This document shows positions 3,377 to 12,936 of a DNA stretch of 64,000 bases, in pieces. The notes below the pieces were generated by a model. That model was not told the DNA's origin. It made no database searches and worked only from the letters and a program-made list of their open reading frames with translations. The translations under genes were made by a program, and so were the position numbers. Within the stretch, counting starts at the first letter, position 1, and each line of letters starts with the position of its first letter. Source of the DNA: a phage; assembly GCA_024674815.1 (NCBI GenBank), contig GCA_024674815.1_4104.1; one strand, 5' to 3'.

Positions 3377-3748
3377 TTATGACATACGCTTATTATGAAT
3401 GGAATTATGAATGGATTTTAAATAATTATATAATTTTATCAATCCACTACCAGTAGCTACAAACAGTAGTGCTGTTGGTATCATACATCCAAACATGGTT
3501 ATTAATTCATGTATTTCCATACCATCACTATTTGGTCCCACATCAAATATAACAACCAAAACAACACCTAAAATGCTTAGACAATAATATCCCATAAAGA
3601 CCATAAAAGTGATATATCCGGCACTTGATTTAATATTACATAACATATTATACACTGGATTAATACAGAAGAAGTATAATAACCATGCCAGTGTTCCAGT
3701 ACTGAACATAATAATTGAAATAATGGAAAATATCTCACGGTAACTCAT
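3377..3748 (-). CDS. small multi-TM membrane protein (family M)
   Basis: Hydrophobic helices; basic C-terminal tail; tandem paralog array. Confidence 0.6.
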   Translation of the reverse strand: MSYREIFSIISIIMFSTGTLAWLLYFFCINPVYNMLCNIKSSAGYITFMVFMGYYCLSILGVVLVVIFDVGPNSDGMEIHELITMFGCMIPTALLFVATGSGLIKLYNYLKSIHNSIHNKRMS

Positions 3749-3749
3749 A

Positions 3750-4112
3750 TTATTTCCTCATACCCAAACGTTGGTGGATTTCAGAGATCTTTATATATAA
3801 TAGTACCACAAGGTGCAGTACTAAACAACATATAATTACGGCTAATACCAATGAACATATCATAAGACCGAAGGTTATTGTATTCAAAGAGGATGTGAAC
3901 AGTCCAATTATTAATACAATAAAACCAAAATTGAATACTGTACCCAACACAGTATATGCTGGACTATATCTCTTTTGGATTACATCATATATATTTGATA
4001 ATGGTCGCTTATGGAAGTACTTCCCAATGCACACGAATGCATTCAGTGAGAAGATAAATGTATACGCCATTACTAGTAATTGACCAACGAAAGATAATTC
4101 TATCCCATTCAT
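3750..4112 (-). CDS. small multi-TM membrane protein (family M)
   Basis: Start moved to internal Met to avoid 62-bp overlap; hydrophobic; tail ...EIHQRLGMRK. Confidence 0.5.
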   Translation of the reverse strand: MNGIELSFVGQLLVMAYTFIFSLNAFVCIGKYFHKRPLSNIYDVIQKRYSPAYTVLGTVFNFGFIVLIIGLFTSSLNTITFGLMICSLVLAVIICCLVLHLVVLLYIKISEIHQRLGMRK

Positions 4113-4113
4113 A

Positions 4114-4482
4114 CTAACCTCGTTTACGTTTTTTAATTGTACTGTGCATCTTTTCGAAATAGGGAACCAAAACATATTGAACAGTTTGCCAGATAACCAT
4201 TAGATTATGCACTGCACCACCAAGGATACCAAACACTAGAACAATAATTGCCATAATAGGATCACCGTCTACCATACCCCATTTAAAGATATGTAAAATC
4301 CAAGCAATGACTAGACAAAATAAACTAAGCCAATACGTAATGAAAAATCCGGCTTGTAATTCATAATCATCAGCAATTTCATCGTATACCGTTTCTAAAA
4401 ATGATACACAAAAGAATTTACCAATTATAACCACAGTACTAATAAACAGCATAGCAGTTAAGATAATAAGAGCAATTTCCAT
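4114..4482 (-). CDS. small multi-TM membrane protein (family M)
   Basis: Hydrophobic; C-terminal KKRKRG tail. Confidence 0.6.
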   Translation of the reverse strand: MEIALIILTAMLFISTVVIIGKFFCVSFLETVYDEIADDYELQAGFFITYWLSLFCLVIAWILHIFKWGMVDGDPIMAIIVLVFGILGGAVHNLMVIWQTVQYVLVPYFEKMHSTIKKRKRG

Positions 4483-4796
4483 TACATCCCTCGTTTACGC
4501 TTTTGATTGCGTCTAAATTCTGATAGTCCACGGCTAATCGGCGGCATCAGACTACATAAAAAAGTAACAGTTGTTGGTAGTAACATCAAGTCAATCATTG
4601 CAGTGTTATCTGGTGGATCAAAAACCAAAAAATACACACAAGAAACACTAATAATGGTTGAACCGATAAAAGGAATACAAAATTCTTTTATCTGTTTTTC
4701 AACATAATCAAACATCTTGAGTACAAATAAAAATCCAACCCAACACATAATGAAATAGAATGAATACAACGTGTAAATCAATGTTACTATATCCAT
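4482..4796 (-). CDS. small multi-TM membrane protein (family M)
   Basis: Hydrophobic; C-terminal RRNQKRKRGM; 1-nt start/stop overlaps. Confidence 0.6.
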   Translation of the reverse strand: MDIVTLIYTLYSFYFIMCWVGFLFVLKMFDYVEKQIKEFCIPFIGSTIISVSCVYFLVFDPPDNTAMIDLMLLPTTVTFLCSLMPPISRGLSEFRRNQKRKRGM

Positions 4797-5134
4797 TAGT
4801 ACCTCGCATCAGGAACTTTAGCACGTAACTTATGAACGACTGGGAACAACAACAAACTTACATATGCAATAGTTGAACCCCAATAGAATACTAATACAAT
4901 TGGTTCACCATTAGAACGGAAACCTCTACTAATCATTGAGTAGTGAATAATAGGCATAATCATCGCCATACCAAACCATGCGTGTAATTTTAATTGCAGC
5001 ATGTTATCAGCGATGAATACTGAAATTGGTCGTTTAAAGAACCACATCAGAAAGTAGAATCCAGCACTAATAATATAGTACATGGTACTAACTTTCATAT
5101 ACCACGGCAGTAAATCAATAAAGTACTCCATCAT
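4796..5134 (-). CDS. small multi-TM membrane protein (family M)
   Basis: Hydrophobic; C-terminal LRAKVPDARY. Confidence 0.6.
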   Translation of the reverse strand: MMEYFIDLLPWYMKVSTMYYIISAGFYFLMWFFKRPISVFIADNMLQLKLHAWFGMAMIMPIIHYSMISRGFRSNGEPIVLVFYWGSTIAYVSLLLFPVVHKLRAKVPDARY

Positions 5135-5478
5135 TCCTCCGGTATCTTATTTCGAAGTTCAATCATAACACAACAAATTTTAATGGTCAATATAAAAGTT
5201 AAACATATCATCCCAAGTGTGCCGTAAACTGCGGAAAAAGCTGGTAGTACCTTTCCTGTGAGTGTTGCTACAATACATGCAATCAATGTTGATGCAAACA
5301 ACGATTGATTAATGGCAGAATTTATAAAATCTTCACCATTACGTTTATAGAATTGTCGTTTAAAATACCATCCTAGAAACATAACTACCCAAAATGATAC
5401 ATAAGTTGTTAGAATAATCCCTGCAAGTGAATGTGCAACTGGACTACTCCTTAAAAACTCAAGATAAGCTTCAAACAT
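5131..5478 (-). CDS. small multi-TM membrane protein (family M)
   Basis: Hydrophobic; C-terminal LRNKIPEE. Confidence 0.6.
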   Translation of the reverse strand: MFEAYLEFLRSSPVAHSLAGIILTTYVSFWVVMFLGWYFKRQFYKRNGEDFINSAINQSLFASTLIACIVATLTGKVLPAFSAVYGTLGMICLTFILTIKICCVMIELRNKIPEE

Positions 5479-11255: not shown

Positions 11256-11256
11256 C

Positions 11257-11652
11257 TCAAAATAAATTCATTTCATGTGCGTATTGTGGTTCAAGATAAG
11301 ATAAGTTTTTGAAACTGTCTTTCAATTCCGCATCATCTACGTACACAGTACCAGGTACATTCCCCATAGTGAAGCCAACCCAAACAGTCATGTTTCCAGT
11401 TCCTAAGCGGGGCATTGATAGCGTCCCGTCAGGTGAAACATCAAACGCTACACTAAAGTCATCCGTTACAACTTCCGACCCATTTTCCAGAATAATACAA
11501 CCACGTTCTTTAAGCTTCTGAATGTGGATAGCAGCCTCTACAGCACGTTTAAAGTTATAATAAGACTCTTTATCCTCGAACATTGATTGTTTAACCAGAC
11601 GCTTGTTTAGCTCGGTTACTTTGTGCATTTGACGCATTACTTCAACTCCCAC
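11257..11652 (-). CDS. hypothetical protein
   Basis: 131-aa ORF. Confidence 0.6.
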   Translation of the reverse strand: MGVEVMRQMHKVTELNKRLVKQSMFEDKESYYNFKRAVEAAIHIQKLKERGCIILENGSEVVTDDFSVAFDVSPDGTLSMPRLGTGNMTVWVGFTMGNVPGTVYVDDAELKDSFKNLSYLEPQYAHEMNLF

Positions 11653-11891
11653 AGTTGTAGAATTTCATAAGAGCCTGGTGGTGCTGGATTGATAATCTCA
11701 GGGTATTCAGTACTGTTAGGATTACCACCAGCATTGAACTCAGCAAGTAATAATTCGAGTTCATTCCTATCATGTACAACAAACACGCAATATCCAGTTC
11801 CTTCTTCAAGAACTGTAGTTGACCCCGCACAATCCCATACGGTATCAATACATAATAATTCTTTAGTGTTTTTATTACGCAACGCAAACAT
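11637..11891 (-). CDS. hypothetical protein
   Basis: 84-aa ORF abutting neighbours. Confidence 0.5.
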   Translation of the reverse strand: MFALRNKNTKELLCIDTVWDCAGSTTVLEEGTGYCVFVVHDRNELELLLAEFNAGGNPNSTEYPEIINPAPPGSYEILQLWELK

Positions 11892-11900
11892 ATATGTCTC

Positions 11901-12269
11901 CTATCGATTCGGCATATTCTTTCGTAGTCGCAAGAGAAATTCAACCACTGACCATGTTGTAATGAAGGCTATATAAGTTGCAAGGAATCCAGTAAGAATA
12001 AATGCAACCAGCGTACTACCATTTGGGGAATCAGTTTTAATGCCGATGACACCATCGGCTACAGTGAAACATGTAGCCATTAATGTGTAACCTACGTACA
12101 ACACAAAGAAAAACTCATTCTCCATTGAAGGATAGAAACGGTTAAACACTTTATAAAATTTAAAGTACAGTAGGATTATACCAACAAAGGCATAGAATGT
12201 AAACAGTGTTGTTATAATATATGAGATTAGGTTCAAATTATACATATCAACGCTCCGGTAGATTATCAC
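11901..12269 (-). CDS. small multi-TM membrane protein (family M)
   Basis: Hydrophobic; C-terminal LRLRKNMPNR. Confidence 0.6.
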   Translation of the reverse strand: MIIYRSVDMYNLNLISYIITTLFTFYAFVGIILLYFKFYKVFNRFYPSMENEFFFVLYVGYTLMATCFTVADGVIGIKTDSPNGSTLVAFILTGFLATYIAFITTWSVVEFLLRLRKNMPNR

Positions 12270-12594
12270 GTAATGTTTTAATTCGATGATACATTTTCAT
12301 ACCAATATTACCAAAGATACCATATCCAAGTACTAAAATGTATGCAATAAGCATAGTAATAATTACTATAGTGCCAAAACTATAATGTACACTACTGATA
12401 CCCATTGTAGTTTCAACGATTATTTGAGAAACTGAAAGAATCAAAAGTACAACTACAATTGGATGATTTGGGTACATTCGGTTGAACAACGTTTTGTACT
12501 TAAAGAAGCACAGTACTCCACCGAATAAGAAGTACACAATGTAAATGCAAGCAACAGCATAGGCAAACATGTTAGTGTAATAAATCATTACCAA
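12247..12594 (-). CDS. small multi-TM membrane protein (family M)
   Basis: Hydrophobic; C-terminal LRDNLPER. Confidence 0.6.
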   Translation of the reverse strand: MVMIYYTNMFAYAVACIYIVYFLFGGVLCFFKYKTLFNRMYPNHPIVVVLLILSVSQIIVETTMGISSVHYSFGTIVIITMLIAYILVLGYGIFGNIGMKMYHRIKTLRDNLPER

Positions 12595-12597
12595 TCC

Positions 12598-12936
12598 TTA
12601 CTTTTCAGGGATATTAGAACGCCATATATCAATGCGATGAACTAGTCCAAAGAACAACCATACTGGAACGGCAGCTATCATAACAACAAATGAAAACCCA
12701 GTCAACACCGATACCAGATTTAATTCATCAGTACTATACCCACATATCAGTACTTCTAATATTCCCCACGTACATGCACAAAACATCAAGAATGAAATTG
12801 GGGCATCATAGTAGATACGTTCATATAAAGTAGTATATCGGAAGAATGCAATAATATAGCAAAACATATAATACACCCAAACCAAAGATACTACATAAAA
12901 TGATACTTTGTTTATTAATTCAAAATATTGTTCCAT
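12598..12936 (-). CDS. small multi-TM membrane protein (family M)
   Basis: Hydrophobic; C-terminal WRSNIPEK. Confidence 0.6.
   Translation of the reverse strand: MEQYFELINKVSFYVVSLVWVYYMFCYIIAFFRYTTLYERIYYDAPISFLMFCACTWGILEVLICGYSTDELNLVSVLTGFSFVVMIAAVPVWLFFGLVHRIDIWRSNIPEK

Follow-up and report, generated by a model that had tools for sequence, protein, structure and literature searches.

Ten small membrane-protein genes, arranged in two tandem arrays on the minus strand, were analysed in a 64,000-nt stretch of phage DNA (NCBI GenBank assembly GCA_024674815.1, contig GCA_024674815.1_4104.1), referred to below as the window. Seven of the genes (m7 to m1, array 1) lie at positions 3377-5816 and three (m10 to m8, array 2) at 11901-12936. 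Profile searches and alignments place them in one real, very diverged homologous family, whose members are predicted to cross the inner membrane three times. By inference, exclusion or defence evasion is the most plausible functional class. Our favoured reading, to which we assign a probability of roughly 0.35, is that the paralogues form a battery of accessory factors for conflicts with other phages or with the host at the inner membrane (exclusion or anti-defence).

RaK2-like jumbo phages, the group to which the family is traced below, are under development for therapy, and more than 80% of their genes are without known function. Here, seven PHROG families of 'unknown function' and the unmatched m2 are merged into one superfamily with a defined predicted topology, two near-invariant residues are named, and the family is given a fixed genomic address beside an uncharacterised ATPase gene that is also found in T4-like phages. 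What is new is the recognition of a superfamily. We regard this as a solid but unsurprising finding of moderate weight. Jumbo phages are known for many paralogues; in RaK2, ~10% of the gene products were reported to be paralogues (PMC3622015).

Source phage and gene set

The region 3000-13500 of the window was 98.8% identical to Escherichia phage vB_EcoM_E9.1 (E9.1), the nearest relative, and 97-98% identical to phAPEC6, slurp01, 121Q and others. By these matches, the window is assigned to an Asteriusvirus-type jumbo coliphage (121Q/PBECO4/E9.1), a myovirus with a genome of ~350 kb. The G+C content of the window is ~33% and the minus strand holds nearly all genes past position ~2700.

The ten open reading frames (ORFs) singled out in a preliminary description of the window were found in place on the minus strand, and are annotated as coding sequences (CDS) in E9.1. 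The size range given there, ~105-140 amino acids (aa), was corrected to 104-123 aa after revision of the start codons. The 141-aa version of m2 (ORF 3750-4175) was rejected as over-extended, its upstream ATG overlapping m3 by 62 nt; the start was set at the ATG at 4112 (120 aa), as in the E9.1 annotation and in all relatives. GTG/TTG starts were likewise dropped for m8 and m9, and the internal ATGs at 12245 (m8) and 12588 (m9) were preferred. The revised gene set is as follows, in the order of transcription, with predicted transmembrane (TM) segments and the C-terminal tail of each protein.

5478-5816, minus strand: m7, 112 aa, 3 TM, tail GRDKIRGDF; leads array 1
5131-5478, minus strand: m6, 115 aa, 3 TM, tail LRNKIPEE
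4796-5131, minus strand: m5, 111 aa (112 aa from the ATG at 5134), tail LRAKVPDARY
4482-4796, minus strand: m4, 104 aa, 3 TM, tail FRRNQKRKRGM
4114-4482, minus strand: m3, 122 aa, 3 TM, tail MHSTIKKRKRG
3750-4112, minus strand: m2, 120 aa, 3 TM, tail IHQRLGMRK
3377-3748, minus strand: m1, 123 aa, 3 TM, tail IHNSIHNKRMS; closes array 1
12598-12936, minus strand: m10, 112 aa, 3 TM, tail WRSNIPEK; leads array 2
12247-12588, minus strand: m9, 113 aa, 3 TM, tail LRDNLPER
11901-12245, minus strand: m8, 114 aa, 3 TM, tail LRKNMPNR; closes array 2

Evidence for one homologous family

Pairwise identity among the paralogues was low (~11-27%). BLASTP between them was weak, with clear links only for m9-m10 (E-value 1e-9) and m8-m9; some of the other pairs gave collinear full-length alignments with E-values of 0.003-0.7. 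PHROGs spreads nine of the ten genes over seven separate families, all of 'unknown function' and made up of these proteins and their Asteriusvirus orthologues: 19285 (m8-m10), 19046 (m6), 19454 (m7), 27396 (m5), 33258 (m4), 26405 (m3) and 27618 (m1), with no match for m2. Here they are treated as one superfamily on the grounds of shared motifs and topology. Low identity and the scatter over PHROGs, together with the marginal profile scores of m4 and m5 given below, would suit the opposite view, in which there is no family but a composition-driven resemblance of unrelated hydrophobic ORFs, or a set of functionless, decaying duplicates. The searches that follow leave that view a negligible chance.

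For iterative searches with hidden Markov models (HMMs), 812 ORFs of at least 50 aa were collected from the window and from the syntenic regions of E9.1, A4, JNE01, Turkey5, PHA46, BF17, ph0011 and TH47. A jackhmmer-like iteration started from m10, m6 or m3 converged on the identical 83 of the 812 ORFs. From the window these were the ten genes and no other ORF, and from the relatives their counterparts in the arrays; all lay on the coding strand, with no false match, and the single sub-threshold match after iteration was itself inside an array. When RaK2, four metagenome contigs and RB69 were added (1047 ORFs), 113 ORFs were recovered, again with no false match, and the window count was still ten. 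RB69 was the negative control and yielded no family member in the iterative HMM search.

In leave-one-orthogroup-out tests, an HMM was built without one group and was then used to score the window member of that group. The scores were 40.1 bits for m1, 35.9 for m3, 32.8 for m8, 28.1 for m6, 24.6 for m7, 23.9 for m2, 23.5 for m10, 20.7 for m9, 15.7 for m5 and 13.6 for m4. Eight members (20-40 bits) were above the 1488 reversed, shuffled or background control sequences, whose top score was 15.8 bits, and m4 and m5 were marginal. Group-versus-rest comparison with hhalign gave probabilities of 95-98% for all groups except m4 and m5 (m3 98%, m6 97%, m2 96%, m7 95%); the probability was 86% over 98 columns for m4 and 91%, limited to 19 C-terminal columns, for m5. 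For seven further small TM ORFs in the window, the hhalign probabilities were only 0.2-15%, and these ORFs are not members. By sequence, membership is least certain for m4 and m5, and both hold a collinear array position in every relative.

Conserved columns were read from 64 members with mutual identity below 60%. At its cytoplasmic end, TM1 carries a Phe (F34 of m7) in 63 of the 64 proteins, preceded by Phe or Tyr in 58. A second column, located 7-10 residues from the C-terminus (R105 of m7), was Arg or His, again in 63 of 64 (32 Arg, 31 His), and was followed by [KN]-[IL]-[PK]. The basic tail, which the preliminary description had picked out, is therefore conserved in position. The same description had named as its refutation an alignment in which the proteins shared hydrophobicity and nothing else; the alignment revealed conserved positions instead. 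The ratio of nonsynonymous to synonymous substitution rates (dN/dS), calculated versus three relatives, was 0.10-0.42 for all ten genes (0.20-0.23 for m7), and by this measure the ten are real, selected protein-coding genes.

Iterative HMM searches, leave-one-out scores, conserved columns and hhalign thus agree on a ten-member paralogous family in two tandem arrays, as first proposed. Hydrophobicity-only similarity and decaying pseudogenes were both ruled out by the leave-one-out, hhalign and dN/dS results (all values below 0.45), and orthologues are retained across genera.

Topology and predicted structure

Three hydrophobic segments were found at matching positions in each protein with Kyte-Doolittle windows, and were weaker in m5. 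The preliminary description had counted three to four TM helices: three were supported for all ten proteins by the hydropathy plots, with AlphaFold2 models of m7 and m10, and a fourth was not. The m7 model contains helices at residues 8-33, 37-42, 48-73 and 80-107 (predicted local distance difference test score, pLDDT, 76.6; predicted template modelling score, pTM, 0.62), and the m10 model contains helices at 2-33, 35-41, 45-65 and 74-107 (pLDDT 71, pTM 0.38). The layout is the same in both: three long helices and a short helix in loop 1.

The mean number of Lys and Arg residues per protein was low for the N-terminus (0.41) and loop 2 (0.53) and high for loop 1 (3.16) and the C-tail (3.95), a distribution that points to an N-out/C-in topology by the positive-inside rule. 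The short acidic N-terminus is predicted to be periplasmic, and the basic loop 1 and the basic C-tail cytoplasmic, so that every strongly conserved position would lie on the cytoplasmic side. Only ~8 and ~15 residues make up the periplasmic parts. Within orthogroups, conservation was lowest in TM3 (49%) and TM2 (53%) versus 70% in loop 1, the highest value.

Class I holins (lambda S105, P22 gp13) are proteins of ~105-110 aa with three TM helices, an N-out/C-in topology and a basic, charged C-tail. The family (~105-120 aa) shares their predicted size, TM number, topology and tail, and a holin-, pinholin- or antiholin-like role in setting lysis timing or lysis inhibition would fit this architecture. 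The literature searched names no holin for Asteriusvirus or RaK2-like phages, and lysis inhibition has been proposed as one mechanism of Asteriusvirus persistence (bioRxiv 10.1101/2024.12.31.630880). However, no holin model was matched in Pfam or NCBIfam at E<=1 or in PHROGs at E<=0.01, the dual-start Met-Lys-Met motif of class I holins is absent, and the periplasmic parts are too short to be sensors. Ten paralogues behind sigma-70-type promoters in an early-type region, with ATPase, RCC1-like, kinase and denV genes as neighbours in place of a lysis cassette, are also not what a holin would lead one to expect. The predicted endolysin of RaK2-like phages, of the signal-arrest-release type, is gp532 of 121Q (PMC5259590), and is far from the arrays (gp207 and gp224-232 in 121Q), so that family and endolysin are unlinked. 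A holin or antiholin role is disfavoured, and we consider it quite improbable.

The immunity proteins of pore-forming colicins and of ionophoric contact-dependent inhibition (CDI) systems are another class of similar architecture: they are of ~110 aa, with 3-4 TM helices and in-membrane specificity, and are often found in polymorphic arrays. Enterobacterial hosts produce colicins and klebicins. By analogy, the family might be an immunity-like battery directed against pore-forming bacteriocins or contact-dependent ionophoric toxins, a view with which its size, its TM number, the concentration of variability within the membrane and its polymorphic tandem arrays of variable copy number are all consistent. 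Yet no similarity to colicin or CDI immunity families was found in Pfam or NCBIfam, the context is a phage early region, neither toxin genes in general nor a cognate toxin are located nearby, and we know of no phage precedent for a bacteriocin-immunity battery. The chance that this explanation holds seems slighter still than for a holin.

Gene junctions and promoters

The genes of both arrays are tightly packed. Their junctions had been described as ATGA-type overlaps, and the packing was borne out, with a true ATGA possible at m6/m5 alone: the sequence there is ATGATG, which can be read as an ATGA or as a TGATG overlap. The m7/m6, m5/m4 and m4/m3 junctions are TAATG (1-nt overlap), the m3/m2, m2/m1 and m9/m8 junctions consist of a stop codon, 1 nt and an ATG, and m10 and m9 are separated by a 9-nt spacer. 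A Shine-Dalgarno-like tetramer was present in the last five codons of 61% of the family genes (all loci) versus 3% of internal windows. In the window, the Shine-Dalgarno sequence of each following cistron doubles as the codons for the tail residues PEE, KRG, RGD, MRK and ARY (m2-m7 and m9). The tails of m10 and m8 are without such a sequence, which spans the stop codon instead, and m1, at the end of array 1, has no downstream cistron. Overlapping or abutting stop and start codons with embedded Shine-Dalgarno tetramers are consistent with the translational coupling suggested earlier. The extreme C-terminal residues would thus be dual-coded, partly under nucleotide-level constraint; the Arg/His column lies upstream of the Shine-Dalgarno-coding stretch.

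The following features flank the arrays.

5846-5874, minus strand: sigma-70-type promoter (consensus match), TTGACA-17 nt-TACTAT, in the 65-nt gap upstream of m7
13257-13285, minus strand: sigma-70-type promoter (consensus match), TTGACA-17 nt-TATTCT, upstream of the 93-aa gene
12939-13220, minus strand: 93-aa non-membrane gene, not a family member, 2-nt spacer to m10; phrog_37917, unknown function
3347-3372: hairpin with a perfect 11-bp stem, just after the m1 stop codon and before a 220-aa gene (2673-3335), with a T-run on the plus strand

The promoter at 5846-5874 is the putative start of the array-1 operon, and its -35 and -10 elements are conserved upstream of the first array-1 gene in BF17, TH47, ph0011, JNE01 and Turkey5. 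In RaK2, PHA46 and contig L010, the ATPase gene upstream of the array is followed not by a promoter gap but by a gene that abuts the ATPase stop codon; this abutting gene scored below the family threshold. The TTGACA of the array-2 promoter is also present in ph0011 and JNE01, and the 93-aa gene is the putative leader of the array-2 transcription unit. Between 5800 and 14000, sixteen -35/-10 matches of at least 10/12 were found, all on the minus strand, and none that strong on the plus strand. Eight of them, the best of the intergenic matches, fall just 5' of genes and occupy most of the few intergenic gaps (5874, 6710, 8128, 8552, 9410, 11255, 13285 and 13981). From these features we infer that each array would be a translationally coupled polycistron, transcribed early by the host RNA polymerase from sigma-70-type promoters. 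The hairpin probably marks the boundary of array 1 towards the convergent RCC1-like genes; with its T-run on the plus strand, it resembles a terminator for those genes and not for the array.

Distribution, synteny and a possible membrane complex

With tblastn, m6 and m10 were found in 36 phage records only, all Asteriusvirus-like, and m7 and the m1 orthologue also matched the Klebsiella phages RaK2, K64-1 and Muenster. The identity of the m1 orthologue in Klebsiella phages RaK2, K64-1 and phiKp_21 was 38-41%. Only 10 matches came from a profile search covering 5.8 billion proteins, and 37, of 89-129 aa and nearly all full-length, from an exhaustive HMMER search covering 1.84 billion cluster representatives. 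Every match traced came from a RaK2-like jumbo phage or from a metagenome contig (contigs L010-L012 share synteny), and these large protein searches gave no family member outside jumbo-phage genomes and metagenome contigs. Judged from these records, the family is restricted to RaK2-like jumbo phages (Asteriusvirus, Alcyoneusvirus and PHA46-like phages) and the matching metagenome contigs.

The gene at the 5' side of array 1 is as follows.

5882-6652, minus strand: NrdC.10-like P-loop/AAA ATPase gene, ~40% identity to T4/RB69 NrdC.10

Array 1 (5-10 genes) is directly downstream of this gene in every relative fetched, RaK2 and contig L012 included, and faces a convergent block of RCC1-like genes, a layout kept in A4, JNE01, Turkey5, BF17, ph0011, PHA46, L010 and L011. 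Array 2 (1-3 genes, or more) is downstream of a T7-type kinase gene and the 93-aa gene. The ATPase gave weak Pfam AAA matches and belongs to phrog_1250 (unknown function); a search of Pfam, PHROGs and the nrdC.10 literature for a functional lead yielded none.

Assigned by best window paralogue, the order m7-m6-m5-m4-m3-m2-m1 is the same in all Asteriusvirus clades, and m7-m5-m4-m3-m1 are collinear in RaK2. Given this collinear subfamily order, the array already comprised several paralogues before the phage genera of E. coli and Klebsiella diverged. The total copy number is 10 in the window, BF17 and TH47, 11 in ph0011, JNE01 and Turkey5, 8 in A4, 9 in RaK2 and at least 8 in contig L010. Later, an additional m7 was gained in ph0011, an additional m4 in JNE01 and Turkey5 and two additional m6-like genes in RaK2; as a loss, A4 retains a single array-2 gene.

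A hetero-oligomeric inner-membrane assembly (ring, channel or anchor), expressed stoichiometrically by coupling and working with the NrdC.10-like ATPase, could account for several of these observations. The fixed gene order over diverged clades and into RaK2, the purifying selection on all paralogues, the overlapping or abutting junctions with embedded Shine-Dalgarno sequences, and the constant position of the ATPase gene as 5' neighbour (with the next gene abutting its stop codon in RaK2, PHA46 and L010) would all be expected of it. The strongly conserved positions, all facing the cytoplasm, would then be subunit-subunit or subunit-ATPase contacts. On the other hand, the array-1 copy number varies from ~5 to 10 with lineage-specific duplications, array 2 is 6 kb away with its own promoter and not beside the ATPase gene, and T4-like phages have NrdC.10 and neither the family nor any TM array beside nrdC.10. 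In two isolates, the greater part of m6 is missing along with two-thirds of the ATPase gene (see below), and synteny is expected anyway among related, collinear genomes. We hold such an assembly, the main rival of the conflict reading, to be possible, though not probable. The more specific proposal that the arrays and the ATPase are a membrane machine of 3-TM structural subunits (a channel, a translocon or an anchor of replication or assembly sites) seems unlikely to us; such a machine would be specific to RaK2-like jumbo phages, which are without a phage nucleus. An ATPase-linked complex, if real, would be a new phage membrane machine.

Divergence and natural deletions

The family proteins are 30-51% identical to their JNE01 orthologues. 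Eight of the genes that separate the two arrays have a match in JNE01; seven of these are 78-100% identical, and the exception is an 84-aa gene (11637-11891) adjoining m8, with 38% identity.

Two Salmonella phage genomes, SD-1_S14 (L015) and SD-2_S15 (L016), carry clean deletions inside m6 with different ends (5208-5460 or 5217-5361). Both also have a shared ~563-nt deletion corresponding to window positions 5808-6371, through which the array-1 promoter, the beginning of m7 and two-thirds of the ATPase gene are lost. Provided that the two assemblies are correct, the deleted parts are dispensable.

Other variants were recorded for m8. A shortened 101-aa m8 CDS is annotated in SD-1_S14, and the protein P0014 is an m8 variant with a 13-aa in-frame deletion in TM3 (…NGSTL[VAFILTGFLATYI]AFITTW…). 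The deletion looks like slippage between repeated AFI motifs, and the m8 variant may be inactivated.

Membrane conflict as the favoured reading

In the mechanism that we favour, the Phe that closes TM1 and the Arg/His in the helical extension of TM3 would make up a scaffold on the cytoplasmic side that is common to all paralogues, and the TM2-TM3 hairpin would be where they differ most. Within the bilayer, each paralogue would bind an inner-membrane target of its own. As candidates we consider host proteins or conduits that the DNA of superinfecting phages makes use of, and membrane-acting defence effectors or toxins. The joint outcome would be a broad exclusion or anti-defence cover for a long-lived infected cell.

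This conflict reading is preferred because of the accessory, early-type setting of the genes, their copy-number turnover and divergence, the natural deletions and the persistent lifestyle of the phages. The neighbourhood is rich in small accessory genes and includes a T7-type kinase gene, denV and genes for predicted exported proteins; m7 and m4 have lineage-specific duplicates; and TM2 and TM3 are the least conserved segments within orthogroups. In bacterial isolates, Asteriusvirus genomes often turn up as persistent infections (bioRxiv 10.1101/2024.12.31.630880), a setting where exclusion would pay.

T4 Imm, HK97 gp15 and P22 SieA are phage inner-membrane exclusion proteins. Like the family, they are small inner-membrane proteins encoded in accessory regions, and they act at the membrane. 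No sequence match links them to the family in Pfam, PHROG or NCBIfam searches, and T4 Imm is a single-copy protein with two TM helices, whereas the family has ten paralogues with three predicted TM helices each.

Several observations weigh against a role in conflict. Ancient paralogues in a fixed order, purifying selection, translational coupling and linkage to the ATPase gene fit one complex at least as well. The contrast in divergence from JNE01 could reflect mosaic recombination and not fast evolution, and m10 has an unchanged protein sequence (100% identity) in 21 phage records, which is not the behaviour expected in an arms race. The SD-1_S14 and SD-2_S15 genomes may carry assembly errors. 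Early timing, as read from consensus promoter matches, is at most suggestive: the region-wide number of such matches (66) was not above expectation (58.1 +/- 9.2 in shuffled sequence). No similarity to Imm, Sie, holin, immunity or defence families was found in Pfam, PHROGs, NCBIfam, PADLOC or PDB profiles, and fold searches yielded generic helical bundles only, none of them informative.

The individual database results were of the same kind. Pfam gave only sub-threshold, mutually inconsistent TM matches for family members, and profile searches of NCBIfam, PADLOC and PDB gave no match common to several members; three PADLOC models were each matched by one of 32 members, with a best E-value of 0.026. 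The ph0011 record likens its m7 orthologue to Phi92_gp233, a likeness that was not reproduced by tblastn at E<=1. Literature searches covering Asteriusvirus, RaK2, CBB, nrdC.10 and the comparative genomics of jumbo phages turned up no description of the family.

If the conflict reading is true, the arrays would be an unusually large membrane-level battery for exclusion or anti-defence, with a bearing on phage cocktails and on persistent infections by Asteriusvirus.

As a separate observation on sequence conservation, m6 is 83-98% identical over largely the same phages as m10, a pattern of mosaic conservation within the family.

Neighbouring features

The small multi-TM ORFs of the window that hhalign separated from the family are listed here; they include an adjacent pair of 140-aa proteins (30862-31287 and 31284-31706).

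20380-20757: non-member small multi-TM ORF
21207-21533: non-member small multi-TM ORF
21592-21834: non-member small multi-TM ORF
30862-31287: non-member small multi-TM ORF
31284-31706: non-member small multi-TM ORF
10158-10409: non-member small multi-TM ORF
8604-8798: non-member small multi-TM ORF

The RCC1/WD40_RLD-like repeat genes that converge on array 1 are a tandem block at 81-2692 on the plus strand, with homologous blocks in L002-L007 and L010; 7 to 12 copies were counted in the fetched stretches of A4, JNE01 and PHA46.

Upstream of the ATPase gene, a 373-aa ORF (6722-7843, minus strand) contains four internal repeats of ~85 aa (TEQFIEEAKKRRTDVDFDYSKVNYIN..KTK.TIIDPEFGEF). In E9.1, the same slot is occupied by genes for an 'endonuclease' and an HNH endonuclease, which makes it a variable site of insertion separating the ATPase region from that of denV.

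Signal-peptide-like N-termini were recognised by eye in the ORFs at 13993-14412, 14756-15082, 20027-20377, 20769-21128, 24255-24530 and 24898-25143, two of which have a lipobox-like LTAC; these ORFs suggest that the early-type region encodes many proteins directed to the cell envelope. Finally, a 321-aa ORF at 28305-29270 (minus strand) resembles a sigma factor of the sigma-70 family, and a CDS in the fetched region of A4 is annotated as 'sigma-70 family RNA polymerase sigma factor'.

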